From positions 1,184,001 to 1,248,000 of the forward strand of contig CM000436.1 in the NCBI GenBank assembly GCA_000165345.1: a stretch of 64,000 bases of DNA, in the 5' to 3' direction. Below, in pieces: positions 12,276-47,600 of this stretch; the first letter of the stretch is position 1, and each line of letters begins with the position of its first letter. Position numbers and translations under genes: made by a program. The notes under the pieces were generated by a model. It had not been told where the DNA came from, searched no databases, and worked only from the letters and a program-made list of their open reading frames with translations.

Positions 12276-14618
12276 ATGAGCCTTGAAAGGGTTAATTCAA
12301 GTATAGAAATGCGAGAAGATAGCCCTACAAGAGATAATACCATCACTCAAGTAGATGTTAGACAGAATTCTGATCTCCTACAAGACTATCCTTCAATGAG
12401 AGTTCCGAGTCTTATAGTATTTGGACAAGGCCAAAGCCAAAATCATACTCAAGGCCATACACATGGATATATTCAAACTAATCAAACTAACCAAGTTACT
12501 CAAATAGGGGAGGGAACTGATCCATCTCTAATAAGAATAGCAAGAGGAGGAACAACAACAACTTCTTCTTCTTCAGGAAATAGTATTGAGAATTTACCAA
12601 ATCCACTTTTAGAAGAAGGAGGACAAAGTTTAATTATAGAAACAACAACATGGTCTAGAGATTCGCATGAACTTTTTGATTATGAAGCACAACATATTAA
12701 TAATAAAAAGTTTCTTGTGAGTAAAAATAGCAAAATCTTTCGACAAAATACAGAATGTATGATTGTTGGTGATGAGGAAGAGCTTCCAACACAAGGAGAC
12801 TATTTATTATCTATAAAAACCACTTCAGATGGGAAATTTGTAGCTTTTCCTGCAGATAGAAGTTTGGGAGCGTGTAGTGAAAGGCAGCTAATTCCTAAGA
12901 AGGTTTGGTTAATTGTTCGAGATCTGCCTAGTAAATCATATGCTTTACAACAAAACGATATGGTTAAGCTAGGAAGATTTAAATTACGTGTTAAACAATT
13001 GGTTAAAAATGAAGATCAAATTCCAGAGCTTAGGCTTGATGAAATGGAAACAAATATTATTGAGCCAACTTTAGAGGAATCTATAACAATGCAATGCAGA
13101 ATTTGTCTCACTGAAGGAGAGCAAGAAGATGATCCTTTGCTTTGTCCATGTCAGTGCAGAGGATCTATTAAGTTTGTTCATTTAGAATGTTTAAGACATT
13201 GGATTAATGGAAGGCTCAATCTGGCCAACGAAAATGGGTCCGGAGATACCTTCTTCTTTAGGCAGTTACAATGTGAGCTTTGTAAGAGTCCTCTTCCTTC
13301 TTCAGCTTCTATTAAAGGCTCTAGAGTCAATATTGTTAAAGTACCTCAAGCTAAACCTCCATTTATTGTTTTGGAGAATATTTATGGGAATGTTCATAGA
13401 GGAGTGCATGTAGTAAGTATGGCTGAAAAGAAGGATTTGAAACTTGGTAGAGGTCATGAATCAGATGTAAGAATTTCTGATGTAAGTATATCTAGATATC
13501 ATGCAACTATTAGATATAGAAATGATAACTTCATGCTTGAAGATCATGATTCCAAATTTGGTACTCTTGTTTCAGTCAGGAGACCACAAGCCATAGATAA
13601 TTGTCATAATTTAGCTCTCCAAGTAGGAAGGACTGTAGTTAATTTGAGACTTTCAGAAGAGCCATGTTCTCCTAGTATTGGTATAAAAGAGTTACCTGTG
13701 AGCAATTCTCCAGATTTCCTTTTAGATCCTGAGCAAAATAATAACCAAAATGGAGGAGCTAGTGGAAATAATGGAAGTGGTAATGGTGGTGTATCTGGAG
13801 TAAACCGAAGATCTAGTGGCTTAAATGCAAACTCGGATGTAAATGGTATGAATCATCAGAATTCTCAAGGTGATTTCCATTGCTTACATAATAAAATGAG
13901 CCAAAATTTAAGATTAGCAGCTCCTGCTACACTTTCCAAAGTAATTGAACATTCTCAGAATATTCCTTCTTTTTTGGATATTCAAGAATCTGACACAAAA
14001 AGTGGCCAAGAAAACGATAATACAAATATTAGAAAAGGAGCTATTCAGAATGTTTCTGAAGATAAATCAACGTTTTTGTCATCTTTGGTTTCCTCTTTAT
14101 CACCACTATCATCAACATCGTCATCTTGTTCATCATCATCATCTTCTTCATCATCTTGTTCATCTCTACTATCTACCTATACTCAACTTTCTACCTCTAC
14201 TATTCCTACTCATTCTCTTGAAGAGATAGCAAATAAAGGAGTAGAAGTTAAAAACAATGGTATTCAATCAATTAATGGGTTAAAACTGGAGAATATTAAT
14301 ATTCAAAATAAGATAGAATTTTTTGGAGATGAAAAAAAGAAGCAATCTGAACAAGATTACTTAGAAATTAAAGAATCAAAAAATAACATCTATAGAAGTG
14401 GAAAATTACTAGTTTCTGAAACCTTTGGTGATGGTGGTTTTGTGGCCCCTCCTTCTAAAGATTCAGATCATTTCTTGGACTGCTCCAAAAATATGAACTC
14501 TCTCATTTACAATAACATTAACCACTGTAAAAGCAACCACAGAATTAGTAACAAGACTTCATTACGGTTACCTTGTTCATCTTTAACATTTTGGATTGAA
14601 AAAAATCAATCAACTTGA
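12276..14618 (+). CDS. RING-CH (MARCH-type C4HC3) zinc finger + FHA domain protein with Ser-rich low-complexity C-terminus
   Basis: ATG at 12276. CRICLTEGEQEDDPLLCPCQCRGSIKFVHLECLRHW is a RING-CH finger. LKLGRGHESDVRISDVSISRYHATIRYRNDNFMLEDHDSKFGTLV is an FHA domain. (TCA/TCT)n codon repeats lie at 14100-14170. Confidence 0.85.
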   Translation: MSLERVNSSIEMREDSPTRDNTITQVDVRQNSDLLQDYPSMRVPSLIVFGQGQSQNHTQGHTHGYIQTNQTNQVTQIGEGTDPSLIRIARGGTTTTSSSSGNSIENLPNPLLEEGGQSLIIETTTWSRDSHELFDYEAQHINNKKFLVSKNSKIFRQNTECMIVGDEEELPTQGDYLLSIKTTSDGKFVAFPADRSLGACSERQLIPKKVWLIVRDLPSKSYALQQNDMVKLGRFKLRVKQLVKNEDQIPELRLDEMETNIIEPTLEESITMQCRICLTEGEQEDDPLLCPCQCRGSIKFVHLECLRHWINGRLNLANENGSGDTFFFRQLQCELCKSPLPSSASIKGSRVNIVKVPQAKPPFIVLENIYGNVHRGVHVVSMAEKKDLKLGRGHESDVRISDVSISRYHATIRYRNDNFMLEDHDSKFGTLVSVRRPQAIDNCHNLALQVGRTVVNLRLSEEPCSPSIGIKELPVSNSPDFLLDPEQNNNQNGGASGNNGSGNGGVSGVNRRSSGLNANSDVNGMNHQNSQGDFHCLHNKMSQNLRLAAPATLSKVIEHSQNIPSFLDIQESDTKSGQENDNTNIRKGAIQNVSEDKSTFLSSLVSSLSPLSSTSSSCSSSSSSSSSCSSLLSTYTQLSTSTIPTHSLEEIANKGVEVKNNGIQSINGLKLENINIQNKIEFFGDEKKKQSEQDYLEIKESKNNIYRSGKLLVSETFGDGGFVAPPSKDSDHFLDCSKNMNSLIYNNINHCKSNHRISNKTSLRLPCSSLTFWIEKNQST

Positions 14619-24519: not shown

Positions 24520-27500
24520 TCACTCCTTTTTAGGAATTTCTTGATTTAAATTCACATTCTTTAAACTATTATTATTGTTTGTTGGATCTTGAATTGGATT
24601 TCCAATTGTTGTCCCTCCTTTATTTATTCCATTAAAGCCAACTAATGGGTTTCCAATATGTTGTTGAAATTGTTGTTGCTGAAGTTGTTGCTGTTGTTGT
24701 TGTTGTATTATTAAACTCAACATATCTCCTCCAATGGAATTTCTATTTAATTGTTGTCGACTTTGAAAATTAAAAGGGATTGTATTTGCTAGAAACTGTT
24801 GTTGCAGTTGTNGCAATTGCAGTTGTTGTTGCTGCTGTTGCAGTTGTTGTAGTTGTTGAAGTTGTTGTTGTTGTTGTTGTTGTTGCTGTTGTTGTTGTTG
24901 TTGCTGCTGCTGCTGCTGCTGCTGTTGCTTTAACTGTAGCTGCAATTGAAGTTGAAGTTGTAGCTGTTGATTGTGTTGTTGCTGCAGTTGCTGTTGTTGT
25001 TGATGTTGTTGCTGTTGTTGCTGTTGCAATAACTGTTGTTGGAACAAATGTTGAAGTTGGAAAAAGTTAGGAAATGCTTGGGGTTGTGTTTGCAAAGAGG
25101 TTTGTGAAAAAAGTCCATTTCCAACCCCGAATTCATTTCCAACTCCAGCTTCAATTCCAGCTCCAGTTCCAATTCCAGCTCCAGTTACAACTCCAACTCC
25201 ACCACTTCCAGCTCCAGCATCAATTCCAGTTCCAGCTCCTACACCAACTCCAGATCCAACTCCAGCTCCTACGCCAACTCCTACACCAACTCCAGATCCT
25301 GCTCCAGCTCCAGATCCAGCTCCAGCTCCAGCTCCAGCTCCAGCTCCAGCTCCAGCTCCAGCTCCAGCTCCAGCTCCAGCTCCAGCTCCAGCTCCTACTG
25401 AATTCAAAGTTGCAGAATCAAATATTCCTGGAACTATAACACCTTTATTTGAGCTATTTTCTGTTTTTGAATTAAATCCTCCTTCTCCGCCTTCTGAGGC
25501 TCCCATTGTTATTTTACTTGAAATTTCAACAACCTCACATGACTTCTCTCCGTCTACTATCGCTTCCTTAGCTAAAACCATACTCTTACTATTATCGTAA
25601 TCCCCTACTTTAGTAGAATCTCCAACTAATACCTCATTCTTGTCCTCATTCTTCTCCTTCTCTGTCTCTTTCTGCTCTTCTTTTCCATATTGATCATTTA
25701 CTGATATTCCTTCTACTAATCCAGAAACCATCTCTGCTTTCAAATCCGTAATCAGAGTTTCAGATTCAGGTTTGAGCTTAGTTTCAGGTCCAGGTTCAGA
25801 CTCAAGATTGGGTTCAGTTTCAGGATTAAGATCCCGCTCTTTTAACTCTGTAGAATCTTTAGTTGTTGAATTATTTACAGAAGTTGGATTAGGACTTGTA
25901 GTGATACCTGCAGTATAATTACTACCGCCAACAATTCCACCACTTCCCAATAATGTGTTCATTATCATCTGATTTAAAGGATTTGCCAATCCTCCAACAA
26001 ATCCAATCTGTTGAGAATTTCTCATTTGTTCTTGTAATGTTTGCTGAAAAACCAACTGTTGTTGTAAGTATTGATTCATTAATATACTATTCCAAGTCTG
26101 ATTGTGATTGCTCTGGGAATTAATATTTGTTGAATCACTTGTACTATTATTAACACTGCTTGTTGTATTAACACCATTATTCACAGGATTTATAGATATG
26201 GGATTCTCTGTTGCTCCTACTGCTCCTGATACCGATCCTGATTCTCCTATTCCTGTTCCTCCCACTCCTCCTGCTACATTATGCTGTCCAAGATTAGACC
26301 CCAAGCCTCCAAATAATAATCCAGAAGGATACCCCACTCCTGTTGCTCCTGTTGCTCCTGTTGCTCCTGTTGCTGCTCCTACTCCTACCCCTGCTCCTCC
26401 TACTCCTGTTACTCCCATTCCTATCCCTCCTCCTCCTCCTAATCCCAACCCTCCTATACCAGGAATTCCCCCCTTAGCCATTCCAGGTATACCAGATATG
26501 CCTCCTATACGAGGTATTCCTCCTAAATTTTGTAGTCCTCCCATACTTTGTAGTCCACCCAAACCCTGAAATCCTCCTATACCTTGTAGTCCTCCAAGCC
26601 CTGACAAATCTTGAATGCCATTACCGCTCCCACTACAACTATTACTACTGCTACTGTTATTAATATCATTACCACCACTTCCTCCTACATCACCAACAGC
26701 ATTTTCCACTCCCATTCCAGAATAAATACCTGTATTTGATACTTGGCAAGGCTTTAATGGATTCACTTGAGATGTAACATTTCCACATGAATTAATAATT
26801 GATGGAAAACCACCTGATAAAATTGGTATAGAATTATCATTAACTTTAGGTAATTGTAATCCAAAATTTACGTTACCCATATTCATATTTAATAATGAAT
26901 TTGGCTGTAATTGACTTAGTCCAGGAATTGAATTATCTGAAATAAAGTAGTTTGCTAGAATTCCATTATTATTTAATAATAGTAAGTTATTAATATTATT
27001 GGATGATGATGATGTTTCTATTTTACCATTTAATACTTTATTATTACTATTTCCTTTCATATACTCATCCATCAATTTTGGTATCTTTCTATTCATACTC
27101 TCTTCATTATATTCATTTAAACCAATATTATTACCATTTCCACTACTCATTAGTATATCATTACTGTTCGTATCACTAACTTCCTTGCTATTTAACAATC
27201 CTACTACTCCTGTTACACCTGATCCTGGCCCTGATCCTGGCCCTGATCCTGATCCTGACCCTGATCCTGACCCTCTCTTACGTCTTCCTTGCCTTGGCTT
27301 CTCATTCATTGATGATTTTTGTAATACCGAATTACTATTTATATTATTAACTATTTCCAAATTTCTTAATTTACCTTTACCTGTCTCTGTTGATGGAACA
27401 TTTGAGACATAATTTGAAATATCTGAAGATAATGAATAATCTTGCTTATTTGATGGAGATATTGTCAAAGAATGTAATAAAGAATTACTACCATTTATAA

Positions 27501-30500
27501 CTCCTCCTAATTCTCCCATTATATTATCCATAAACTGATTCAAATATAAATATACCGATACCTTTAAATCATTTATTGATATATTTGGATCCAAATATGA
27601 CATATTCAAAGATTCTTGATCTTTATATTCTTTATGATCAAATATTATTGGTATATTACTTGGTAATTGTATATTTGAATTTCCTTGCTTATTTTGAATA
27701 TTTATATTATAAAAAGGAGAAATTAATGCATCCATATCTTTTGGTAATATATATCCATTACTTAAGTTATCCATTGTATATCTTTTATTTGTATTTAAAT
27801 GAGAATCATCATGTTTTCTAAATAAAAACTTATATATTAAATCATCATATAATCCCCATTCTTCTTTCTTTTCTATTCCTATCATATTATTATTCATTTC
27901 TCTTCTTTCAATTATTGGAAGCCTAAATAATGTTGATGGTCTATTTAACATTCTTCTTAAAGATGATCTTGAAAGAAGTCTCTCTGTATACATATTCATA
28001 TTACCAAGACTACTAAAACATGATCTCTTATAAAAATCTCTCATAAAATGATTATATGTTGATTCAATTGTTAAAGTATTCAATATTTCATCAATTAAAA
28101 GCTCCCTATATGAATGTTTCTTATATTTAATAATCTCCATACATCTTATAGTACTAATAAGACTATTCCAAAATATACTCTTATCTTTTTTTATTTGTAT
28201 ATTATCATCATCTTGAGAATCTTTAATAATTCTTTGAATATTTTCTTCTGTATCATCTTTTGTATGAATTGAAGATGATATTATTTCATCATCATTCATT
28301 ATATTATGATCTTTTTGATCATAATGATGATTCATATTAATTTGATTCTTATTATGATTTCCTTTAAAATAATATACTAATCTTAAAATCCTTTTAAATC
28401 CTAATGTATATTTATATTTGTAATAAAAATCTATACAATCTTTAATAGTCTTATATTCCATAAATGATGCTATCCTTCTGAAATCTTTTGGATACATTAA
28501 ATACTTTTCTATAAACATTCTTATTTCTGAATAAGTCCATATAGTATTTCTATTCCTTTCTTGATCAGTTGGATTGATTACTTGATTATTCTTATTAATA
28601 TAAATAAATTTCACAGGTTTAATAGGATCTTGATCATAAACATTAAATTCAATTTCTGCAGGAAATCTAAAAATACTATTCTCAAACCATAGTGGAGATG
28701 GACCTATAAAACTGGATGATGAACTAGTCATTTGCATCCATTCTCTTTGAGCTTGTTTTTGATGTACTATTCCTTTTTCTCTTTCTCTATTTTTTTGTAT
28801 ATTCAATCCAATATCTTTTTCTTTATCTTTTTCTTTATTAGAAATAGGTATTTCTTTATAATTTTTAGTTACCCCGATACCTAATGTTGTAGTACCAGAA
28901 GAACCAAATGATAAAGAATTACAACTATTAGAATGAGAAGGATTAGATTGTGATGTAGAAGTGATATTATTTCCTGTTAAAATATTTCCAATTGATGGTT
29001 GAGAATCATTTTTCATAACTGATGCAAATTCATTAGAATAATTTGTAGATCCAGGTACCCCTCCAGTTTTAACCAAATTAAGAAATGATAAAGATGCATT
29101 GCCTGTATTTGATGACATAGAATGATCTTCATTTCCAATAATATTATTGGAAGAATGATAATTATCATTAGAATTTCTTGTCCTTCTTGATCTTGTAGAA
29201 TTTAATTCAAAGGTACCGACATCAATTCCTCCAGTTCCTCTTTTTCTTCTTGTATTACTAACAGTATTAAGTGTTTCATTTGTTGAATTAGAGATATTAT
29301 TTATATCATGAGTATTCCGATTAATACTTTCAGAATGATTTTGTTCAATATTTCCAATATGATCACTTCCTTTTAATATACCTCCTTTTGTTTGAATATT
29401 ATATAACTTTTGATTATTATTAGTATTAGTAGAATCAATATTATCACCAAATACAAGAGCTCTATTAGAATTAGTAAAAAGTATTGGTGTTTGAATATTT
29501 TGTAAAGACATCATATAAGTTTTTGATATATCATTATTTCTACATTCAGGTAGAAGATCTAGAAATTTATGATATACTTTAAACCTAAAATCATGTTTAA
29601 AATAACCAATAGGTAAAGGTACCAATTGATCAGGATGATCAATTGCTCTTAAAGGTAAACAACCCCAAGTAAAATTCAGATCTCTTTCACTATTTAACAT
29701 TTCATTATATGCAACATATCTTTTATAACGATGATATATAAAATGTAAAGATCTTTTAATATTTGATATTTCATTTCTAATCATGATCTTTTTTCTTTTA
29801 ATATGTTTTCTTACTCTTTGAATTTTTGAAGAATAACCAAGTAAATTAATAGGATGATAAAAATCACCATTAATTGGTCTTAAAATATCTTTAATAACTT
29901 TTAAAGCAAACTTATTATGATCTTGTATTGGATAACAAAGACTAGTATAGTATGGCATTAAAGATACATATTCTGGTATACCAAGTATAACTTCAATATA
30001 ATCTTGTATTTCTCTATCAATAACTAAATCATCCTGATAGATTTTAATAATTTCAAGAGTATGATCATCTTTACTTTCTTCTAAAATAGATTCTAATAAC
30101 TTAATTTCATCCATTAAATAGTTAAATGTTGATATAAGAAATGGAATATGATCACCAGTATTTTTTTGATGATTATCGATAGTAATGATCTCATTAATTT
30201 TATCCTTTAAAACTTTTAAAGAATTTAATTTCTCAATATTTTCTTCTTTGAGTTTTTGTAAAGATTCTGTAATTCCAAAATCATTATTAATATGAGAAGA
30301 AGAATTAGAATCTTGAGAATTTTTATTTTCATTAATAAATCGTATTCGGTACCTTTTTAGATCTTTATTATTTGTATCAATTTCACTATTAATAAATTGA
30401 TCCAACTCTTTAATTCTACCAGGCAAAACACAAATCTTAACTTTTTGTCTTGCAGTTCTAAAAGCCTGACTTGTATTTTCCATAACTGAAGCCAAGTAAT

Positions 30501-31749
30501 TATAATTATGATCATTTTCTTCTAAATTATTATTAATTTCAGAGTTTCCCGCCTTTTCTGTAAAGAATGAGCAAGAATCTGAAATATTGTTAGAATTAGA
30601 AGAATCAATATAAAGATTTTCGAATGCCGTATTGGTATGTTCATCTTCAACTTTTTTTAGTGTGAGATTAGATAGATTGAAATCTGGAGTTAGAAATTCA
30701 ATAGCTCCTAGTAGTCCTTGTTTGTAATTAATAGACTTTTTGTGATTATAATCAGTAAGTCCAGCACAAGATGATGATTCATAAGAGGTACCTAAAGTAA
30801 TTTGAGAAGTTTCTTGAGATCTTTTAACAAGATTAACTTGATAAATATGATATATTTTACATAAATCATTCAAGAATTGACCATTTTCTCCATAAGTTGA
30901 GCTATTAACTGAATTAATCTTTTTAATGTTTCTAATATTTCCCAAGCTTAAATTTAAGTATGGACCTCTTCTATGATCTTGTGCTATTGGTAGTTGTTGT
31001 AAATTGTAATTCTCCAGTTCTCTACCTCCTTTATCATATAAATCTTTCAAGTAATATTTACAAGCTAAAGTAAAAATATCCAAAGGAGTTCTTGATCTTA
31101 ATATCTTTTCTGTTTCATCTATCTCAGTCTTTTCCTTGGAGCTAGTGTTCTTCCTTCTAAAGTATCTTCTATGAGTTTTCTTCTTTTTTGTGTTTATAGC
31201 TTTCAAATCTTTTGTAGAAGAGGAGCATGAATTATTAATATTACTATTGTTATTAGTTGCATTTAAACCAGAACTTGAGCCTAAATTAGCTCCTGAATCA
31301 AAATCTAGAGCCTCACATATCTCTTCTCCTTCTCCATCATCTAAATCATCATCCATAATAGAAGTTGTTAAACAATTTTCATTAAAGTTAATACTATTTG
31401 CCTCGATATTTCTTCTTTCTTGTTCCTTTTTTAATTGTTCCAACTCTAAATTAATTCTCAGTATCTCATCCTGAAGGTATAATACTAAATTATGATCCTT
31501 TAAAATATTTACATTACCAAAAATCATCTTATCTTGAATCTTCTCTTCATCTATTATTGGCTCATATAGAAATTCATCCTTGAATAAATTATCTTTCAAT
31601 CCTCCACCTTCACTAAAATCAGAAACTTGCTTCAAATATTTATCCACTAATTTCTCAAATTCATCAGCTTCCTTAACATTTTTAACTTTTCTACATCCAT
31701 TAATTATGCTTCCCAGCAAAATCTCGTTATATTCAGTTTCTTTATCCAT
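24520..31749 (-). CDS. giant (2409 aa) nuclear low-complexity protein with an N-CoR-type SANT domain; poly-Q, (AG)n, (GS/GP)n and LQ repeat tracts
   Basis: ATG at 31749-31747. WTYSEIRMFIEKYLMYPKDFRRIASFMEYKTIKDCIDFYYKYK matches the SANT consensus. The C-terminal third is encoded by microsatellites: (TTG/CTG)n at 24800-24960 and (GCTCCA)n at 25319-25396. An ambiguous base at 24812 falls inside the ORF. Confidence 0.75.
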   Translation of the reverse strand: MDKETEYNEILLGSIINGCRKVKNVKEADEFEKLVDKYLKQVSDFSEGGGLKDNLFKDEFLYEPIIDEEKIQDKMIFGNVNILKDHNLVLYLQDEILRINLELEQLKKEQERRNIEANSINFNENCLTTSIMDDDLDDGEGEEICEALDFDSGANLGSSSGLNATNNNSNINNSCSSSTKDLKAINTKKKKTHRRYFRRKNTSSKEKTEIDETEKILRSRTPLDIFTLACKYYLKDLYDKGGRELENYNLQQLPIAQDHRRGPYLNLSLGNIRNIKKINSVNSSTYGENGQFLNDLCKIYHIYQVNLVKRSQETSQITLGTSYESSSCAGLTDYNHKKSINYKQGLLGAIEFLTPDFNLSNLTLKKVEDEHTNTAFENLYIDSSNSNNISDSCSFFTEKAGNSEINNNLEENDHNYNYLASVMENTSQAFRTARQKVKICVLPGRIKELDQFINSEIDTNNKDLKRYRIRFINENKNSQDSNSSSHINNDFGITESLQKLKEENIEKLNSLKVLKDKINEIITIDNHQKNTGDHIPFLISTFNYLMDEIKLLESILEESKDDHTLEIIKIYQDDLVIDREIQDYIEVILGIPEYVSLMPYYTSLCYPIQDHNKFALKVIKDILRPINGDFYHPINLLGYSSKIQRVRKHIKRKKIMIRNEISNIKRSLHFIYHRYKRYVAYNEMLNSERDLNFTWGCLPLRAIDHPDQLVPLPIGYFKHDFRFKVYHKFLDLLPECRNNDISKTYMMSLQNIQTPILFTNSNRALVFGDNIDSTNTNNNQKLYNIQTKGGILKGSDHIGNIEQNHSESINRNTHDINNISNSTNETLNTVSNTRRKRGTGGIDVGTFELNSTRSRRTRNSNDNYHSSNNIIGNEDHSMSSNTGNASLSFLNLVKTGGVPGSTNYSNEFASVMKNDSQPSIGNILTGNNITSTSQSNPSHSNSCNSLSFGSSGTTTLGIGVTKNYKEIPISNKEKDKEKDIGLNIQKNREREKGIVHQKQAQREWMQMTSSSSSFIGPSPLWFENSIFRFPAEIEFNVYDQDPIKPVKFIYINKNNQVINPTDQERNRNTIWTYSEIRMFIEKYLMYPKDFRRIASFMEYKTIKDCIDFYYKYKYTLGFKRILRLVYYFKGNHNKNQINMNHHYDQKDHNIMNDDEIISSSIHTKDDTEENIQRIIKDSQDDDNIQIKKDKSIFWNSLISTIRCMEIIKYKKHSYRELLIDEILNTLTIESTYNHFMRDFYKRSCFSSLGNMNMYTERLLSRSSLRRMLNRPSTLFRLPIIERREMNNNMIGIEKKEEWGLYDDLIYKFLFRKHDDSHLNTNKRYTMDNLSNGYILPKDMDALISPFYNINIQNKQGNSNIQLPSNIPIIFDHKEYKDQESLNMSYLDPNISINDLKVSVYLYLNQFMDNIMGELGGVINGSNSLLHSLTISPSNKQDYSLSSDISNYVSNVPSTETGKGKLRNLEIVNNINSNSVLQKSSMNEKPRQGRRKRGSGSGSGSGSGPGSGPGSGVTGVVGLLNSKEVSDTNSNDILMSSGNGNNIGLNEYNEESMNRKIPKLMDEYMKGNSNNKVLNGKIETSSSSNNINNLLLLNNNGILANYFISDNSIPGLSQLQPNSLLNMNMGNVNFGLQLPKVNDNSIPILSGGFPSIINSCGNVTSQVNPLKPCQVSNTGIYSGMGVENAVGDVGGSGGNDINNSSSSNSCSGSGNGIQDLSGLGGLQGIGGFQGLGGLQSMGGLQNLGGIPRIGGISGIPGMAKGGIPGIGGLGLGGGGGIGMGVTGVGGAGVGVGAATGATGATGATGVGYPSGLLFGGLGSNLGQHNVAGGVGGTGIGESGSVSGAVGATENPISINPVNNGVNTTSSVNNSTSDSTNINSQSNHNQTWNSILMNQYLQQQLVFQQTLQEQMRNSQQIGFVGGLANPLNQMIMNTLLGSGGIVGGSNYTAGITTSPNPTSVNNSTTKDSTELKERDLNPETEPNLESEPGPETKLKPESETLITDLKAEMVSGLVEGISVNDQYGKEEQKETEKEKNEDKNEVLVGDSTKVGDYDNSKSMVLAKEAIVDGEKSCEVVEISSKITMGASEGGEGGFNSKTENSSNKGVIVPGIFDSATLNSVGAGAGAGAGAGAGAGAGAGAGAGAGAGSGAGAGSGVGVGVGVGAGVGSGVGVGAGTGIDAGAGSGGVGVVTGAGIGTGAGIEAGVGNEFGVGNGLFSQTSLQTQPQAFPNFFQLQHLFQQQLLQQQQQQQHQQQQQLQQQHNQQLQLQLQLQLQLKQQQQQQQQQQQQQQQQQQQQQQLQQLQQLQQQQQQLQLXQLQQQFLANTIPFNFQSRQQLNRNSIGGDMLSLIIQQQQQQQLQQQQFQQHIGNPLVGFNGINKGGTTIGNPIQDPTNNNNSLKNVNLNQEIPKKE
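24800..24960. repeat. (TTG/CTG)n trinucleotide tract inside the giant SANT gene, encoding poly-Gln on the minus strand
   Basis: gttgttgttgttgctgctgctg; includes the N at 24812. Confidence 0.9.
25319..25396. repeat. (GCTCCA)13 hexanucleotide repeat inside the giant SANT gene, encoding (AG)n on the minus strand
   Basis: A perfect tandem hexamer. Confidence 0.95.
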
Positions 31750-36293: not shown

Positions 36294-38384
36294 ATGCTTC
36301 AAAAAGGTGTTCAGGGAAATACAAACTTTAATCAATGGAATTTATTGATTTTATTATTACATTTGCAATTACTAATAGTAAGTGTAAGGTCAAATGGTGA
36401 TGATGAGTTTTATAATCAAGTAGTTCCAGAGGATCACTCTAAAGCAATAATTGACGCATTAAAAAGTAATTTAAATAATAATCCACAATTGAATGGAGAT
36501 TTTAAAGATTTGATTGGAAATTTAAATAATATGAATGGTTATCAGAATCAATATTATTCAGATGGAAGCTTAATAAATATGAATCCAACAGTGAGTTCAA
36601 ACTATAATTCAAATTTTGGTAGTTTTGCTCAATCACAGAGTTATGGTTTAAGAAGTGAAATGAATACTTATTTAGATCCTCAGAATAGTAGAAATCGAGT
36701 AGATTCTAACGATAATACTTATCATATAATTTACTCAAATAATGAAGAAAGAAAAGTGCCTTTATTTTTGTCAAAATCACCCTTGGTGGTAAATAGTGGA
36801 GGAGGAGGAGGAGGAGGAGGAGGATATTCAAGACAAAGCTATAATGTAAATAGTCGACAAGAAATTAACAAATATTTTTCTCCGTATTCTTCAATTCACT
36901 ACTTAACATCTTCAGAAATTCCAAATAATGAAAATTCTAGATGGACTTGGAACCGCATTGAGAAGCCTATATTTAGAACAAACACTGCAAGGCCCATAGA
37001 GTTTAAGCATAAGATCCCAAGTAAGGATGAAGCTTGGTGGAATGTATCATACAATGTAAGAAAGGAGCCCAGAAGAATGGATTATTCAGAGAATTTAGGG
37101 CAGAATGAACTGGTTCAAATCCAAAATACAGCTTTAGGAAATGGAATTGAAATATCTGATCCAAACCTTAGTAATGATTTTGGATCAGTAGCTACTAACG
37201 AAGCTATTGAACAAATTCAAAGCCAGAGCCAAAGCCAAGAACAAAACCAAAGTCAAATACAAAGCCAAGACCAAGGCCAAATTCAAAGCCAAAACCAAGG
37301 ACAAAAACAAGGACAAAACCACCACAGCCAACACTATCATAAACATGGCCACGGCCATAAGCACAAACACAGTAATAACCACAAAGATCAAAACAATAAA
37401 GATGAAGAAGGACACATAGAAGATGAGATTGTAAAGTCTACAACAGTTGGAGACATAGTAAATTTGACTCGGTTGGAATTACCTAACCCATATGATAGAA
37501 AAGTTGCGGTGGATCAGCTTATTTCAACTTCATTAAATAACTTAAAACAAGAAAACTGGTCAATTCCTGTTGAAGAAATAATCAATGCAACTTTTATATA
37601 TCCTGGAACTCAACAACCAGATCTTGTTCCAAATCAAATGGGACCTAAAGTAAAAGTTCAAGACTTTTATTGTAATCCTCAGATTCACAAATGCACCAAT
37701 CTTAAAGAAGTTGGAGTTGCTATTGGTGAACCTATTTGGAAGATTTATAATACTTCTACAATTGGACGAGCTCAAAGAAGAATTAGTAATTTTCTTGATG
37801 ATACGGAGGTAAGTAAAGCTTTTGATTTTATTTTGAAATTTAACCTAAAATTATTTCCTAAAGGATCACCTAACAATGGGACTTACTCAAACCTTTATTG
37901 ATTATATTGAACAAGAGCCAACAGTAAGTTTAATTTAAATATCCATTTTTCAATTTAATTATCCAATTTCTTATAATAATCATTATGTTTTATTAATTAT
38001 TTTTAGATTGAATTATTAGAATCTATTGGAAAAGCTCCATCTAATATATTTCAAATTCCAGAAAATGGTTCAATTAATCAATTCTATGATAATGCAACCA
38101 GAATTGGAGTATTTCAGACTTCAGAATTTATTAGTCCTCTTCCACAAAATGTAAGTTTATTATTATTAACAATAATATTCAATTATATTTAATCTTAACA
38201 AAAATAGAAAACTGATCAAAAATTTGCTAATGCTCTAAAAAAAGCTGCAATTGATTGTTTACTTTCAAATTTCACTTTACCAAATTGTCAAATTCCAGAA
38301 AATAATACTATAAACGAACAAATATATGGAAATAATTCTATATATCAACTTTTTAAAGATCCAAAAGATAAAAAATTATATTAA
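36294..38384 (+). CDS. secreted His/Gln-rich protein, 5 exons: 36294-37808, 37864-37923, 38007-38150, 38208-38384
   Basis: Signal-like N-terminus LLILLLHLQLLIVSVRS. (QSQ/QNQ)n and HYHKHGHGHKHKH tracts. Three GTAAGT donors at 37809, 37924 and 38151, with acceptors tttcctaaag|G, atttttag|A and aaaaatag|A, all frame-consistent. The read-through ORF instead ends in low-complexity junk at 37901. Confidence 0.6.
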
Positions 38385-38696
38385 TTTCTAATTCTAAAAC
38401 TTACTTACTTATTAGTATCTTTTTCTTTTAATTACATAATTCTCTAAGCTAGGAGCTTTTATTAATTCACACAAATAAGAAACTGAAATTATTCAACTAA
38501 TTAGTTAATTTTATTATAAAAAATCAAAAAAAAAAATTCTATAGATATTTTATACCAATAAAAATCTAAACATCCAAATCACTACCTTATACCTTTTTCA
38601 AAATACAAAAACTCTAATATATAATGTATATATTATATATTTATACACACTCATTTTTGTTCTTCAACTTTATTCTTATACTAATTTTTATTATTT

Positions 38697-38747
38697 ACAT
38701 GTGGCGCCATCCAACGTAGTAAAGGATCCTGACTTTTGGCGCCATAG
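38697..38747. promoter_or_regulatory. ACATGTGGCGCCAT ... TTTTGGCGCCAT pair, ~190 bp upstream of UTP23
   Basis: Two GGCGCCAT boxes 26 nt apart, the first fused to CATGTG. Confidence 0.55.
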
Positions 38748-38934
38748 TCTATAAAGGACAAATAAATATAAAAGAAAAAATGGAAAAAGATAAATAATAG
38801 ATTAGTAGGAAAAAGATTAAGAAAGAAAGAGTGGAAAGGTTGTTTGTATAAATATATGATTGATTAAAATAGAAAAAGAATATTAAAGTTTAATGATTTA
38901 TGATTTGATGAAACTAAATTAATTATTTTAAAAA

Positions 38935-40138
38935 ATGAAGATTAATAGAAAGAAACAGATTAAGCGTATATTAAAGTATTATAAAATAAACTATGGCTTT
39001 GAGGAGCCATATAGACTTTTAAGTAAGTTTAAAATAACTTTGGAAGAATAGAAAAAGATAAGAAGAGTTAAAAATATTAAACTCTAGAAGACCAAAATTA
39101 TTAGATAGAGGTAAATCATAATTATTGAATAAAAGAGTTATACAATAATATTATTTATTTACTAACATTTGCCTCTAATAAAACTATTACTTCTAATAAA
39201 TTCTACTTTTTTCTTTCTTCCAAAGATGAGTTATTATTTTTCCTAATAATTTGAATCTATTTTCTAGTTGATGGTACTTTTATTATGGCAGCTCTTAAAA
39301 ATAAAATACATATAAAAGAACAGTTTCCAAAGATTTTGAATGGGAAAACTACTCCCATTATAACTGATTGCATATACAAAGAGATTGAAATGCTTAATAA
39401 TTTGGAAAGTAAAAAAGCAGATTTTTCTGGTGCAAAACTAATAGCTAGAGGATACTTCAGGCATAAATGTGGTCATACTTACTGTAATGAAAATATCTCT
39501 AATATTGAACATAAGATTTCTCTTATAACAAACAGTCAGGATATTTCTTCTGATCAAGAAGATCAAACTGAAAAAGATACTATTTCTGAAGTTAATAATG
39601 CAGGAAATCAAAATATTCCACGTACATTTGATTCTTTTAGATGCATTTTAGATGTTATTTCAAAAGATAATAATTCTAAAAAATTCATTGTTGCTTCTCA
39701 AGATCCTCTTTTAAGAAAGAAACTTCATAAAGTTCCTGGAGTTCCTTTGATTTATTTAAATAATCAAGTTCCTATATTGGAACAACCATCTACTGCATCT
39801 TATAATCACAAGTTTGCATCTGAAGAACACAGAATGGGGCCTCAAAAGTGGGAATACTCTTTAATTCCATCATTAAAGAGCTTAATTCAGAATAATAATA
39901 ATCTTGATAATAATGAGAGCCAAGAATCAAAGTAAGTTTTAATTCTTTATCATTTTTCATAAATATTTCACCTTTTAATTTCAGAACTAAGAAAAAGAAA
40001 AAGAAAAATCCAAATCCTCTTTCTTGTTTGAAAAAGAAAAAGAAACAAAACACTACCAAGAAATCTTCTGAGCTTAAAGATTCTGAGAAAAAAAAAAGAG
40101 TAAGAACTAAAAGAAAGCAATCCCTAACTAATAATTGA
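38935..40138 (+). CDS. UTP23: rRNA-processing protein UTP23 (Fcf1/Utp23 PIN-domain family), 3 exons: 38935-39022, 39268-39931, 39985-40138
   Basis: Exon 1 encodes MKINRKKQIKRILKYYKINYGFEEPYRLL, the hallmark N-terminus of Fcf1/Utp23. Splicing (GTAAGT 39023, ttttctag 39267) joins it to IDGTFIMAALKNKI...TDCIYKEIE (PIN core). The second intron (GTAAGT 39932, ttcag 39984) adds the Lys-rich tail KTKKKKKNPNP...KKKRVRTKRKQS. Confidence 0.8.
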
Positions 40139-40227
40139 ATTCTATATACTACTAATTATAGCTTTACTATCTTTTCTATATTTCTTTTTTTTCTCTATTT
40201 TTATTTCAACTATATTATTCTCTTTCT

Positions 40228-40304
<77 letters not shown>

Positions 40305-40828
40305 TCCTTACATTATTAAATTCTATCAAATTCTTAACACTTTAATATTGATTTCAAAATTCTAGAAATCCTAAAAACATAAAACCTAAAACTCCAGTAA
40401 AATATCTTTTTTTCTTTTAATAAAAATGTTCATCAAACTTGCAAATATGCAATTTTACAAGTATCGGCAAAAATTGTAATGTTTAGGCGGGAAATAATTT
40501 TAAGATATTTATTAGCCTTTAGAGGGAAAGTATATTAAATATTTAATAAATGTTTAATATTTGAGGAAATAAAAAGAAAAAATAATAATAATTTAGATAG
40601 AAGAAAAGAGGAAGAAAATTAACTAGTTGAATATAAAATTTCAGAAAATTATTTCTATATTTTAAAGATTTATTAATTAATTGTTTGATCATTTAAATCA
40701 GGATTGGAATTTAATAGACAAACTTAATTAACGATAAATATATATAAATATATATATTTATATTTTTATTAAAAACACCAAGTAAATAAGTAATTAATTG
40801 CATTTTTTTAAAAAAATTTGTGATCAAG

Positions 40829-42116
40829 ATGTTTAAAAGAGGAGTTATTACTGCTAATTTGGCAAATTTGGTAATTGCTATACTGGTAAGTTTAAAGATT
40901 AGAGTCTAATAAGTTAGATTAGCATTTTCCTAATCTGACTTGATTTGAGTGGTAATTAGTGACATTAACTTTTTCTTCTTTAACAAAAAAAAAGCTTTCA
41001 GGATGTGCGTTTGGAGGGGTAATGTTAGTTCAAAATTGGACTATGTTTGATGGAGTTATTCTATCATGGGAATTGACACCAAGCCAGCTTTACATTACTT
41101 TAAACTGTTCATCTAGAAGCAAAAGATTTTTAGGATTTTGTGTAAATGGTATTAAAGAAATTCATGGTAGCTTTGCTAATGTTGTTCAGGCAATTTGTAA
41201 CCCTTCAGAAAAGTATAAATTCTTAACAAATTCTTGCGAAGATGCAATTTCTTTGACTAATTATTTAAATATTATATACTTTGTTTTATTAGCTTCAGCA
41301 TCCGTTTCTATATTTGGGGTGGCATTCTTAATGTTGTATAGCAGAAGTTTCAAGGTTGAAGATAATAAGACAAATTGTAAAACATCTGAAGTAATTTTAA
41401 AATCTAAACCAAGAATTGGTTTAGCAGTTGTATCAATTCTATTCAGTATTTTGGCTTTATTAGGAGTCAGCTTTTGCAGTGTATTAGTTATTTATTTGAG
41501 CCAATCTTTACAGGATATACTATCATTTAGTTCTGATGTTCCAATATTTACAATTGAACCTTTCAAAGGTTCACTAGGATGGGGATTCTATTTACTTTTA
41601 TTGGCCAATTCTCTATTAATTGTACATATATTGGCTCTTGTAGATTCAACAAGAATGGCAAAAAATCTTTGGTTATTTAGTCAAGAAATTATGGAAAGTA
41701 ATGCAGCAAAACAACATTCTGAGATTGTGATTAAGAATACTAATAAAGTACCAGAGAAATTTTTTGTTCATAGTTTTCCACCATCTTCAATTGAAACTCA
41801 AGGACTTCAAAACACTGGATCCACTTTTCTACCAAATTCAGGAGTTGTTGGAAGTCGTATCCAAGTTCCTATTACTAGTGAAGATCAGTCTCATTGCCAG
41901 TATATGCCTTTAGTTCAAAATCAACAATTATATCCAAAGATTAGTAATACTCCATCAACAAGGTCAGTATGGGGATTTTTCCCAGTTAACTTACTTCCTC
42001 GTTTTAATCCATACAACTCTGGAATGCCAAATTTTATGAATAACTATGGAGATCATCACTGTCATAGACATCAAGGATGTAACCATCATCATCATCACCA
42101 TCATCATCATAATTAA
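40829..42116 (+). CDS. polytopic membrane protein with C-terminal His-rich tail, 2 exons: 40829-40885 and 40995-42116
   Basis: Real ATG at 40829 (MFKRGVITANLANLVIAIL). Donor GTAAGT at 40886 and acceptor aaaaaaaaag|C at 40994 join it in frame to LSGCAFGGVML. The track start at 40959 is a GTG. At least 4 hydrophobic spans. The tail is HHCHRHQGCNHHHHHHHHHN. Confidence 0.6.
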
Positions 42117-42401
42117 CTAGTAATTCTTTTGTAATAATTCGAAAAGAATTGTTATAACAAAAAAGTGACAAAAATCCTGAATTGGGGTGTTATCTATTTA
42201 TATATATTTATAAATAAATTCATACTAAGCCCCCTATATTTATTGCAATATATTAATCATTATAGACTTGAATATGTTTTATTAAAATATAACTATAAGA
42301 TAAGATCTATTAGTAAAAATTATAAATTATATCAAAAGATTTGAATAATTCATATTAAATCAATGAATTTCTCTGTAATTCTTTTTCTACTATCTTGAAT
42401 A

Positions 42402-43070
42402 TTAGTATCTAAATTCATCTTTCTTAATTAAACTTGTAACTCCGTGATCTCTTCTTTCTATAGTGTCAGAATGATCAATTCTGCAATCAAGACAATCAAT
42501 TGCTTCAATTCTAATCTTTTGATTTGCTCCTAATTGAATATTAGTAGGAATCACACCACCTGTCTGAGTCCTCCTCATTCTAAAGATTTTTGTTTTGCTA
42601 GAATCTATATACATTTTCCATTTTCGCTTATGGAATCTATGAAATATCATCTTCCCTTCAATATTTAAATCAGAATCTAAGTATAAAGGAGAATTTCTTT
42701 TTACTCCAGAAAATCTATTAGATGTATCAAGAATTTCATGCATCGCTTCACATGAATTCTCTAGTATTTGTTTTGCAATATTTGATCTTATGAACTTCTC
42801 CTAAAGATTAATAATATAGAAGATAAGCGTATTTTATTCAATTTAATTAGTTATTTTTCATGAATTGTTTTTTTTAATCAAGAATTAAAATAAACTTACA
42901 TTTTGTAATTGGTTAAGGACTTCTGAAAGACACTGTTTTTAATTTTAAGAATACAGAAAAAAAAAATAACAATGAATAGTAACTTCATCTTTAATCTTAA
43001 GCTATCCCATTTCCTATGGGAATTCTGAACTTACATGTATAACTCTAGTCTTCAACAATGCATCCTTCAT
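42402..43070 (-). CDS. small (~155 aa) hypothetical protein, 3 exons on minus strand: 43035-43070, 42900-42932, 42402-42800
   Basis: Exon 1 ATGAAGGATGCATTGTTGAAGACTAGAGTTATACAT|GTAAGT. Exon 2 aaaacag|TGTCTT...ACAAAAT|GTAAGT. Exon 3 taatctttag|GAGAAG continues in frame into the track ORF. A CCCGCC + CATGTGGGGGG element lies ~150 bp upstream at 43216-43236. Confidence 0.5.
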
Positions 43071-43332
43071 AGCTCCTTAATAAGAAAATTCTTGAAAAAA
43101 ATGTTATACCCAATTGGTCTCAACCAATAGATTTAATGAAACCAAATTTGAAAAAGATTATTACCTACGTAAATATTAATTAAACCCAAAATAAACCCTG
43201 TATAAGAATACATAACCCGCCTAAACATGTGGGGGGAATAATTAAAAATGACTAAAAAAAAAAGGGAAATTAAAAGAGAGAAAAAAAGAGCAAAAATTTC
43301 ATATAAAATAATTCATAGAACTTGCGATTGAA

Positions 43333-44083
43333 TCTACTTTTTCACAGACATAATCATTGAATTAATATCGTCATTGCTCTGTGAGGCTTTTTCTAAAAGA
43401 CTCATATACTGCATTATATTTGATTTATTAGTTTCTGCAATTCTTCCACACATAATAATTTCCTCAATAATTATGTGAGCCTTATCCAAATTAAACATAA
43501 TATCCAGTTCACACTAATAATGATTTAGTTAGAATCGAATTTTTAAATGTAATTGATTTAATTAAAAAAAAACTTACCACATTCTCAAAATATTTATCTA
43601 AAGTCTCTACAATAAAGTGTATAAGTTCATAATATGATAGTTCATTCTAATACATTATTTAAAATGTATTGGAAAAGAATAATTTTTGATAGTAATTTTA
43701 TTAGGTGAAATTATGATAATATTATTAATGATGATAAAAGAAAAATAGTAAATAAAGATTTTATGTGTAAGTAGAAGAATAAAACTTACCACTGTGTTAG
43801 AATTCTCAAGTCCCATTATAAAATATAACGATGCATATCTCCTAAAAACAATCTATATTAATTATAGAGAAACATTTAAACTTGGGCAATTAAAACGAAA
43901 AAAAAATAAAACTCACCTTATAGTTATTAAACTCAATAAATGGGCATTGATTTTCCCCCTTTAATAAGCATTTTCTTATTAACTGTCCTTCTAGAATAAA
44001 TCTTTCCTCTTTTGAAACATGCGTATAGTACTGGCTTAGTCTGATCTGACCCTGCTTGTTGACGAGTAATAAGAACTTAAGCA
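43333..44083 (-). CDS. clathrin-adaptor (AP complex) sigma small subunit, 4 exons on minus strand: 43916-44083, 43789-43851, 43577-43645, 43333-43512 (±1 nt)
   Basis: The spliced product MLKFLLLVNKQGQIRLSQYYTHV...FIEFNNYK|IVFRRYASLYFIMGLENSNTV|NELSYYELIHFIVETLDKYFENV|CELDIMFNLDKAHIIIEEIIMCGRIAETNKSNIMQYM... (159 aa) is collinear with AP sigma subunits (MIKFVLL..QGK.RL.KWY, RRYASLYFC.CID, LE.IH.YVE.LD.YFG.VCELDI.FN.EKA). Donors GTGAGT/GTAAGT. The track's 43890-44084 ORF covers only exon 1, and its end is 1 nt off from my count. Confidence 0.85.
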
Positions 44084-44230
44084 TTCTTCACACAAATAAA
44101 TATATGAATAACAATTGATTAAGTTGAGATTTTTTGTTCTATTATCATTAAAAACTTAATTAAAAAAATTTCAATATTTTTCTTTAGTTAAAAATATGAA
44201 TTTTCTTGAATAAATTAATGACGCAATTAA

Positions 44231-44242
44231 CCCGCGCGCGGG
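44231..44242. promoter_or_regulatory. CCCGCGCGCGGG 12-bp GC-only palindrome in the divergent AP-sigma/PAN2 promoter
   Basis: It is flanked by GGTACAAGCCCCCTCACGGAG, between the minus ATG (~44083) and the plus ATG (44615). Confidence 0.5.
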
Positions 44243-44614
44243 TACAAGCCCCCTCACGGAGTTGGCAGAAAAGATGCGTAAATAAAAGGGATAAAGAAAA
44301 CTGAAGAAAAATAAATAATAGAAATTAGAAAAATAAAGAAGCATATATATAGATGCAAATATAAGAAAGGTTATTTGATTTAGGAAATATATTAGAATAT
44401 CTCAATACAGTTTCTGAGGAAGTTTATGCATTCAGAAAGTAGAAAAATATATGTATAAACATTGTGGGAACTTAATCAGAATTGAAAGACTCTGTAAAGT
44501 TCTTAGAGGGAGTAGATGAAAATTAATCTAACAATTCAAGAAGTTGATAAGAGCCTGGGAAAAAGGTAATGCAGTCCTGTGGGAAAAGATTAGATAGTCT
44601 GGAAGAAAAGATAC

Positions 44615-47600
44615 ATGCAGAACAGGCTATTATATTCAGAAGGAGACTATGAGGACTCTTTTTTAAGCGGAGTTGTTGGTCTAGATACCGGATCAAATGG
44701 TTCAGGCAATTCTTCTAGAAGAGCTAATCAAGGAGGAGCAGCAGGGGGAACTGAATCAGGAGGGATTGGACTTTATGACAGTAGAATTTCTAATAAAGGC
44801 GGCGCATATTATTCTTCAGAAATTAATCATGGATTAACAAGTATGAGTGGTGGTAGATCATCTGTTGGCTATTATGATCATTTTGGTGGGGTTGGATCGG
44901 GACATTTGGATAGTGGCTTAGGGGCTTTAGGAGCAGACTTGAGAGTTGGACAAGCTCCATGGGGATGGGAAACATATACGAGTTATAATATGATTGGCTT
45001 GTTTTCTTCCCATACTAATAATAAGAAAATTAGGCCTTTTATTTCTTCAATTTATTGTGATCCATTTTATGAGCTCCTTTGGCTTGGTTGGACAAATGGA
45101 TTTCTGAGTTCATTCAGATTTCCCCATTGTAGTAGATATACAGCATTTCCAGTAGGAATAGCTGATTCTGCAAGTGGGGGTGGACTTGTCAGAGATAATG
45201 TGATTTACATGGGATTTCCATCATCTTCGCACTTATATACAGTGACTAATAGTGGAATAGGTGTCTATTCCAGAGGAGGAGCACCAATATCTTCTCATTC
45301 ATATAATACACTAACCAATGAAAAGCAACAAAGCTCAAAAATACTGTGCTGTGATTCAAATAGATATCAGTCTTATATGATGAGTAGTCATCCAATCATT
45401 GGTATTGGAACAGGAAAAGGTGTGTCAATCCTAGATTTACAGCAAGTACGACCAATTCACAGTATTCCATATAGTGGAAGTATTAGCTGTATTAAAAGCT
45501 CAGCAAGTTCCTCAAGTTTTATTGTTGGAGGAGTAAATATGCTTGGAATTGCTGATACAAGACTTCCAAGATTAGGACATACTATTCAGATACATCCTAC
45601 TAATTCAGGACAAAATGAGACATTGGTTTCAGGATTAGCAGTTAATGAATACACAGTAGCAATAATTACCAGTACAATCTCAAATAGGAAGATATCGTCG
45701 GATGAACTTTTAAGTTCTGTTGGAGGAGTTTGTGGACTTCCTGTGCTTGATTTAATTAGAATCCATCCTGGAGAAGTTTCTACTTCACCAGAAATGATGG
45801 TTTATAAGAAGAACTTAGATTTGACAAACATGATGAGGGATTCTGTAGTTAGATTATATGATACCAGAAAATTCAGACCAAGGAAAAATATCTCATTTTC
45901 TCCAGGACCAATAAACATTGCTTGGAGTGATAATTCACTGGCCATTTCAGCAGGAACTGCTACTACACCTGATTTTGAGGATTTATACGTTATTGGAAAT
46001 AATGGACAGTGGCAAATTTACCACTCTAATATAGACCAAATGGAATTCTATGCTACTCCATCTGTTCCTTTATCAAATCTTAATTTTAGCTCGTCTAGCA
46101 ATTACCTAATATTGGCTGATACTTCTGGGTCAATCCACACCATGCAGAGGCCTCATACAAATGGAGGAATAACTTCCTCATCTTCAATTCAACCAAATAC
46201 TTCATCAAACACGAATATTAGTACAAGCAACACAAAACTAGAACAGCAACAAATCACAGGTTCAGGAATTTCTGGAGGTGGTGTTGGTGGAGGAATGGGT
46301 TCAAGTTCGGCTTATAATCACCAAAATCATCAACACTCTTTTAGTGTCTTCCATTCTTATCCTCTTCCTAATTTAAATATACCGGGAGCAAGCATTGGAG
46401 GAGGTTACAACAGACAAATGAATACTTCTCTATATAATTACTCATATGTGAAGTCAATTCAAACTCTAATGGGAATTGCCTCCAATCCTGTAACTAAGCC
46501 TATCACTCATAATGTTGGACACCCAACAATACCTAACCTTACAGTCGCACTCAGATATCTTCAAGGACGTCCTGTTGTTGCTTACGATTCTCTAAATTCA
46601 GTTGGAATTCCTCCTATTCTTGAGAAACTACATAATGGAAAGCTTAATATTAAAGAAGATAACCTACTTAGCTTTAACAACAAGTTTGATATTGACCAAA
46701 TTCGTAAAATTCAAACAGAATTTGGTTGGAATACCTACAAATCATCTGATGAGCTCCCACACGGACTTACTATAGTTAAAGCTAGAACAATTCCCCGACA
46801 AACAGATTCTTCACTTGGTCTCAATATTAGCACATCCAATCTCCCTGGACCTCAGAACTCTGCCATAAGGAGCCCGCCTAACGTGGGAGACATGCAAGGT
46901 TTAGTGCATGCAATGGGGGGCATTAATAAGCAGAGTGGAATTCAGTCAAACACGAGGGAACACAATGAAGGTGGAGAGGCCCGACATGGTCACTCTAGCG
47001 GAGCTTTGGCATTTTCTGTGGAGTATATCCGTGAAGTTCGACCAGAGATGGACCATTATAAACTAAAAGCATTGGATTTTAGAATGGTTGACTTTATAAA
47101 GGCTGCTATTAACCCTGATACGACTAAATACAGAAACAATAACTTGGTTTATGGTATCCCTCTCCTTTGTCTTAGAGGTTCTATGCCAATTTGGTACTAT
47201 CGCAAGAAGAAGAATATGTCTCTTTATGCATTTGGAGGTACTCAAGGCTCTTCAGGTGAACATTCTCACACAAAAAGCCTTTCCTTAGTCCCCGTTAAAT
47301 TCCATTATAAACCAAGATTGAACCCGAATAGGCGGGAAAAAATGAAGAACAGAAGGATGATGGGTGGAGGAACTTCAATTGAGAATTCAACTGCAGGAAC
47401 TTCGGGCCAAGGTGTCGCTCATACAGCAGGAGCTTTGGGAAATATGAGTACTAGCTCATCCCTTCCAAATGGAGGGGATGCTCAGACAGTTTCGAGAGCA
47501 GAGGATGATCAATCTTCAATTGGAGAAGGTCTGGTTTCAATAGAATTTGATAACGATACTTTGGACTTTACTCAGCCATTCTTTATGTTACTTTCTTTTA

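Follow-up and report, generated by a model that had tools for sequence, protein, structure and literature searches.

A four-exon gene for an AP-4 sigma subunit in Cryptosporidium parvum and the placing of its second splice donor

Within the window analysed here, a stretch of Cryptosporidium parvum DNA 64,000 nucleotides long, the minus strand carries a small gene of which a track of open reading frames of at least 60 amino acids shows just one piece. An original prediction, made from the letters of the sequence, had joined four exons at this locus into a subunit of a clathrin adaptor. Two questions follow from it: to which adaptor complex does the product belong, and is the four-exon model correct down to the codon, given that the public model of the same gene encodes one residue fewer?

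Structure of the spliced gene and its prior annotation

The four-exon sigma model was rebuilt exactly from the raw sequence by scripted splicing of the minus strand. The coding sequence runs from 43334 to 44084, so the predicted limits of 43333 to 44083 were right in extent but one base low. Splicing also reproduced the intron lengths that had been predicted (64, 143 and 64 nt) together with the donors GTGAGT, GTAAGT and GTAAGT of introns 1, 2 and 3, and excision of these introns restores one open frame of 480 nt, or 159 amino acids and a stop. The parts of the gene are as follows, in window positions, with a slash for a cut:

43917 to 44084, minus strand: exon 1, with the ATG at 44084; 168 nt, 56 codons, MLKFLLLVNKQGQ...NNYK; length kept in seven species
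43853 to 43916, minus strand: intron 1, 64 nt, GTGAGT...ATATAG, phase 0; position kept in seven Cryptosporidium species, with lengths of 59 to 185 nt
43790 to 43852, minus strand: exon 2, 63 nt, 21 codons, IVFRRYASLYFIMGLENSNTV; its last codon, GTG at 43792-43790, would be Val77
43784 to 43792, minus strand: tandem donor GTG/GTAAGT; the public cut lies before 43792 (GTGGTA), the originally predicted cut before 43789 (GTAAGT)
43647 to 43789, minus strand: intron 2, 143 nt, GTAAGT...TATTAG, phase 0, GC content 0.17; 60 to 143 nt across species
43578 to 43646, minus strand: exon 3, 69 nt, 23 codons, NELSYYELIHFIVETLDKYFENV
43514 to 43577, minus strand: intron 3, 64 nt, GTAAGT...TATTAG, phase 0
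43334 to 43513, minus strand: exon 4, 180 nt, 59 codons and the stop TAG at 43336-43334; CELDIMFNLDKAH...SVKK

All three introns are spliceosomal (U2-type GT-AG) and in phase 0, and some 17 nt before the 3' end of intron 3 stands CTAAC, which resembles a branch point. The start codon is unambiguous, since a TGA stands in the same frame 6 nt before the ATG. GC content was found to be 0.23-0.33 in the exons and 0.16-0.22 in the introns, for which the published C. parvum values for comparison are 32% and 22% (Isaza et al., 2015; PMC4637869). Cryptosporidium introns have a median length of 61 and means of 82-99 (PMC4637869, PMC2483917), alongside the 64, 143 and 64 nt measured here. Judged from the sequence, the reconstructed match and frame are far beyond chance.

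The original prediction called the gene missed, which holds for the raw track of open reading frames and does not hold for public annotation, where the gene is present in C. parvum, C. hominis and C. meleagridis. Even in the raw track, the frame at 43890-44084 (64 aa) is the sole piece only at a threshold of at least 60 aa; with a threshold of 20 aa, further frames derived from exons appear at 43334-43498 (last exon, 54 aa) and 43655-43816 (part of exon 2). Both the gene and its assignment to AP-4 are already known from public annotation and from Woo et al. (2015). The public C. parvum protein (P0121 in this analysis; EAZ51488.1, A3FQ07_CRYPI, QOY40258.1, CPATCC_004365) is named 'clathrin assembly protein' and is identical to the predicted protein at 158 of 159 residues, the sole difference being Val77. 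It is encoded on the 1.38-Mb contig CP141125.1 of GCA_035232765.1, which matches the window at 100% identity along 6.75 kb. A comparison over 20.7 kb gave 0 mismatches and one 6-nt indel (at about 40236). These matches place the window on C. parvum chromosome 8, and because of the indel it is from a different, nearly identical C. parvum assembly.

Woo et al. listed the C. parvum AP4S as cgd8_4900, with 158 aa, in their supplementary file 4, along with the other AP-4 subunits AP4B (cgd6_4930) and AP4M (cgd8_950) (PMC4501334). According to the same study, cryptosporidia retain AP-1, AP-2 minus mu, a complete AP-4 and AP-5 minus sigma, with AP-3 absent (PMC4501334). The window contains no gene for the partner subunits epsilon, beta4 and mu4. 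For C. hominis the 2015 table gave raw contig coordinates only, so AP4S was unannotated in that species at the time (PMC4501334). The present locus is publicly known as cgd8_4900, an identification that goes by chromosome 8, length and family rather than by a direct cross-reference of identifiers. The name cgd8_4900 was not found in the main texts of papers and occurs in the supplementary table (PMC4501334).

Assignment to AP-4 and conservation of the spliced frame

The spliced protein was compared with Pfam and matched the family PF01217 (Clat_adaptor_s) at 142.2 bits against a cut-off of 22.5, with an E-value of 1.4e-41. Residues 1-143 align with positions 1-141 of the 142 in the profile, so that the full-length collinearity with clathrin-adaptor sigma subunits, which had been part of the original prediction, is borne out from end to end. 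The alignment against AP1S, AP2S, AP3S and AP4S proteins that it had proposed was then run, and both bit scores and tree assign the protein to AP-4. In a search of all solved structures, the best match was human AP-4 sigma-1 (PDB 9u9i_S) at 155.5 bits, followed by the sigma chains of AP-1 (118 bits), AP-2 (101 bits) and AP-3 (93 bits). In a search of 5.8 billion proteins, the closest matches were those of C. meleagridis, C. parvum and C. hominis (98% identity), C. bovis (78%) and C. andersoni (73%), followed after Cryptosporidium by proteins of alveolates and other eukaryotes. Every one of the top 120 database matches that a source assigned to a particular AP complex was an AP-4 sigma. A neighbour-joining tree, sampled with a single reference each for sigma1, sigma2 and sigma3 and leaving out C. 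parvum sigma1 and sigma2, separated these three from a group of human AP4S1, six Cryptosporidium proteins and named AP4S proteins in 193 of 200 bootstraps. The sigma2 and sigma3 references were verified against PDB chains.

These data support AP-4, by orthology to AP4S1, as the complex to which the gene belongs. A sigma chain of AP-1, AP-2 or AP-3, or a COPI zeta-like small chain, would have the Clat_adaptor_s fold in common with it and could hide behind public product names such as 'clathrin assembly protein' and 'AP19 small subunit', which are generic or misleading, but such a product is very improbable, as AP4S1 beats the best sigma1 by 37 bits, the bootstraps place the protein with sigma4, the complex-specific names among the top 120 matches are AP-4 sigma, and the published orthology table has cgd8_4900 as AP4S (PMC4501334). 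The locus is almost certainly the single-copy sigma4 gene of C. parvum, cgd8_4900 on chromosome 8, for the AP-4 complex of epsilon, beta4, mu4 and sigma4.

To place the spliced frame in an evolutionary setting, orthologous loci of C. meleagridis, chipmunk genotype I, C. canis, C. bovis, C. andersoni and a second isolate were compared. Seven Cryptosporidium species have the exon lengths of 168, 63, 69 and 180 nt in common, the last exon being 183 nt in the two deepest, and in all seven the ATG stands at the same place and opens an intact protein of 159-160 aa. Intron positions and phase are likewise kept in the seven species, with lengths of 57-185 nt, length differences that are not multiples of 3, and intron identity that falls to 29-55% between species. 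Substitutions at first, second and third codon positions in the six loci number 0/0/9, 3/1/25, 5/5/35, 19/4/82, 33/15/85 and 34/17/75, where 3/1/25 is the count against C. meleagridis and 19/4/82 that against C. canis. As substitutions concentrate at third codon positions, they provide strong evidence for purifying selection on exactly the spliced AP4S frame. A separate observation concerns the C-terminal tail NDDINSMIMSVKK, encoded by the last 13 codons (43334-43375), which is conserved across the genus and reads ...DNITSMNLDIRK in C. andersoni.

For the role of the gene, the following sequence of steps can be proposed. AP4S would be transcribed from the minus strand, starting in the divergent promoter region that it shares with a PAN2-like gene, and three short, AT-rich, phase-0 GT-AG introns would be spliced out of the transcript. 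The product would be a small chain, longin-like and about 159 aa long. From homology with the human AP-4 structure 9u9i and with work on Toxoplasma, sigma4 would pack against the epsilon trunk to give the AP-4 core, and the same two sources suggest that the complex would sort cargo leaving the trans-Golgi. C. parvum has been reported to have both AP-4 and tepsin, in a study that described the function in Toxoplasma with AP-4 co-immunoprecipitation (PMC12517565). Expression of AP4S, assembly of the complex and a trafficking role are what we infer for Cryptosporidium.

The tandem donor of intron 2

The difference between 158 and 159 aa arises at a tandem donor, ACA GTG GTAAGT, where the public splice falls three bases upstream of the predicted one (ACA/GTGGTA). 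In the public model intron 2 is therefore 146 nt long and the Val77 codon GTG is intronic. Several features of the sequence argue that the main donor is quite probably GTG/GTAAGT, giving 159 aa with Val77, and not the public ACA/GTGGTA. Irimia and Roy (2008) found that GTAAGT begins 84% of Cryptosporidium introns (PMC2483917). This published donor consensus was used here, intron enumeration for four neighbouring genes, worked out from gene span and product length, being ambiguous; GTAAGT recurs in those genes. When the downstream site is counted for intron 2, G stands at +5 in 21 of 21 donors of the seven orthologues, whereas the upstream alternative GTGGTA has T at +5. The 12-mer GTGGTAAGTTTT is identical at the donors of introns 2 and 3, and at intron 3 the downstream GT is used, because GTG there encodes the Val of the invariant FENVCELD motif and is hence coding. 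GTG followed by GT(A/T)AGT was found in seven of seven species, in the deeper of which the rest of intron 2 is unalignable. Such persistence beyond the alignable intron is expected of a 5' splice site and not of intron positions +4 to +9.

The protein sequence was also considered. Across species the residue before NEL is always V with the downstream donor, and T, M, K or S with the upstream one. Among the 121 closest homologues, 58, transcriptome-derived ones included, have V, I or M before NEL, and in the AP4S of Eimeria stiedai the V before NEL is encoded inside an exon. The loop before NEL has 9 or 10 residues among homologues, and because its length varies homology cannot decide the Val77 codon.

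The foremost alternative is that the public 158-aa model is right and that intron 2 is cut at the upstream GT (ACA/GTGGTAAGT, 146 nt). Eight public annotations have this cut, including an RNA-seq-informed re-annotation of C. parvum and that of C. muris RN66. Val77 is omitted in the models of C. parvum, C. hominis, C. meleagridis, chipmunk genotype I, C. bovis, C. xiaoi, C. muris and C. serpentis, and for C. parvum in several re-annotations, some of them RNA-seq-informed; it is present only in the public models of C. andersoni and C. canis. The models that omit it are probably not independent, models often being transferred by homology, and the number of concordant 158-aa models weighs little for the same reason. 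Isaza et al. changed a model only where expression evidence spoke against it, a point that counts against the public cut (Isaza et al., 2015; PMC4637869). The 9-residue loop that results from the upstream cut is as common among homologues as one of 10, and possible base-pairing between the GUAAGU of the downstream donor and a conserved ACUUAC, 12 nt further downstream, might make that donor less accessible. Set against this, most introns in the genus start with GTAAGT (PMC2483917), which GTGGTA matches very poorly, and none of the other donors among the 21 lacks G at +5. The upstream cut would also require the same 12-mer to be handled differently at introns 2 and 3, would leave the conservation of GT(A/T)AGT at +4 to +9 in all seven species unexplained, and would put a varying residue before NEL where the 159-aa model always has V. 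The public cut is thus unlikely to be the main one.

A less probable proposal is that both tandem GTs are used, producing two isoforms that differ by Val77 in a subtle alternative splicing of the GYNGYN type. Both GTs are kept in seven of seven species, independent annotators picked different sites, and the third position of the GTG is invariant, unlike that of the intron-3 Val codon, which may be GTG, GTC or GTT. The two sites, however, differ greatly in strength, and invariance of the GTG is also expected from a Val codon combined with the preference for G at donor position -1. Use of both sites is accordingly rated improbable, and the downstream cut as the main one remains the preferred reading.

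A further variant would make the genus-wide tandem donor a regulated splice choice, with ACUUAC masking GUAAGU in the C. parvum clade and two isoforms or conditional splicing as the outcome. It is rated more doubtful still, and if true would explain the disagreement among annotators over intron 2. At the 5' end of intron 2 (43767-43789, minus strand), base-pairing is possible between the GUAAGU donor and the ACUUAC that lies 12 nt downstream. The block TCTTCTACTTACAC shows no change among C. parvum, C. meleagridis and chipmunk genotype I, and is lacking from C. canis, C. bovis and C. andersoni. Folding of intron 2 gave a z-score of -2.8 and just two short hairpins, and the pairing may be due to chance or may form a local structure in which the 5' splice site is hidden. 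An Rfam scan of 42300-44700 for an intron-hosted snoRNA or other RNA returned only two sub-threshold chance matches.

Transcript-derived sequence was sought in two collections. An exact look-up of the 159-aa protein in a collection of 15 billion proteins found neither the protein nor a transcript-derived copy, and a search of JGI metagenome contigs for either spliced junction of exons 2 and 3 gave 0 matches. Returning to the downstream donor as the preferred cut, the widely propagated 158-aa model is probably one codon short, and this one-codon correction is the only point of the analysis that is possibly new.

Genomic surroundings, annotation and comparison with known systems

AP4S and the PAN2-like gene are divergent and have a 530-bp intergenic region in common, in which one conserved feature was noted:

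44231 to 44257, no strand assigned: conserved GC-rich block in AT-rich intergenic DNA, with the perfect palindrome CCCGCGCGCGGG at 44231-44242 and GTGAGGGGG at 44249-44257 on the minus strand

The block is kept in C. parvum, C. meleagridis, chipmunk genotype I and C. canis, and its flanks diverge. It is a candidate for a promoter element shared by AP4S and the PAN2-like gene, and may be akin to the E2F-like GCGC and G-box motifs known from upstream regions in Cryptosporidium. On the far side of this region, the leader of the PAN2-like gene (44516-44652, plus strand, with its ATG at 44615) has upstream ATGs at -99 and -46 that are kept in five intestinal-clade loci. The upstream frame at -46, MQSCGKRLDSLEEKIHAEQAIIFRRRL (44569-44652), overlaps the PAN2-like ATG out of frame, and its peptide is similar even in C. 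canis. The roughly 65 nt before the PAN2-like ATG show conservation equal to that of coding sequence. An upstream exon of the PAN2-like gene was considered as the cause of the conserved leader; no frame-compatible GT-AG solution was obtained, and the two conserved upstream open reading frames were found instead.

According to the original prediction, small housekeeping genes in this region are intron-rich. This stands for five adjacent genes at about 36.3-44.1 kb, and it fails for ten other fully checked genes of the window, which are intronless, one of them an 88-aa gene and another that of the V-ATPase c subunit (181 aa). Intron presence was judged by comparing gene span with product length in public annotation, and the count covers the window outside about 18.4-32 kb. 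The local cluster (about 36296-44084) consists of five consecutive intron-bearing genes, encoding a 630-aa protein, Fcf1 (301 aa), a 392-aa protein, a 155-aa protein and AP4S; for the 630-aa gene, the listed coordinates did not start on an ATG in the extraction. Two partly covered genes, one with a NIF domain (762 aa) and one with a Sad1/UNC domain (1158 aa), each equal a single window frame of the same length. Exact look-ups of the large window frames at 12276-14618 and 24520-31749 found none on record. Across the C. parvum genome, about 10.8% of genes have introns (about 89% are intronless), and the intron-bearing ones average 2.6 exons (PMC4637869). The four-exon AP4S is toward the intron-rich end for C. 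parvum and is not typical.

The related claim that annotation mishandles such genes fared better, given the omission in C. hominis and the faulty models of C. canis, chipmunk genotype I and C. andersoni. The C. canis model (P0089; locus L006, 1425-2100) is in the wrong frame and starts 76 nt downstream of the true ATG; it also has a wrong 5' exon, and its 3' end is fused to the next gene. In chipmunk genotype I (P0122; locus L007, 1501-3138), the model is spliced across the stop codon into the downstream gene and reaches 343 aa. The C. andersoni model (P0003; locus L004, 1501-2479) begins with a spurious exon, MPPFNY, where MIKFILLVNKQGQ belongs. The practical value of the reconstruction for annotation is modest, a single uniform four-exon model being suited to the seven species. 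Its biological weight is small, since Cryptosporidium AP-4 sigma is annotated and has been used already in comparative studies of adaptor complexes. The locus also demonstrates that short multi-exon genes can be reconstructed by a first-stage reader from raw sequence.

The nearest known counterpart is cgd8_4900 of C. parvum Iowa II, which is the same chromosome 8 locus: its DNA is identical throughout the gene region and is divided into the same four exons by the same three introns. What sets the public model apart is intron 2, which starts three nt upstream, and with it the missing Val77. Human AP4S1 (9u9i chain S) has 49% identity and 75% similarity over residues 1-146, and is collinear with a single 2-residue gap. 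Compared with the human protein, the Cryptosporidium protein has a genus-conserved C-terminal tail of about 13 residues (NDDINSMIMSVKK), and its loop before the NEL helix is 2 residues longer. AP-1 sigma1A (1w63_Q, 4p6z_S) has the same fold and Pfam family and aligns over its full length, yet it scores 37 bits below AP4S1, stands apart in the tree and belongs to another complex.

Among apicomplexans, Toxoplasma gondii likewise has an AP-4 complex, with sigma4 (TGME49_314418) and tepsin. An equivalent target compartment in Cryptosporidium is an assumption. The AP4S of Eimeria stiedai (P0019) is 65% identical and has the same ...V-NEL... motif, but its gene contains a single intron of 270 nt, at codon 61 in phase 2. 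As this intron lies at another site, Eimeria stiedai shares none of the three intron positions of Cryptosporidium.
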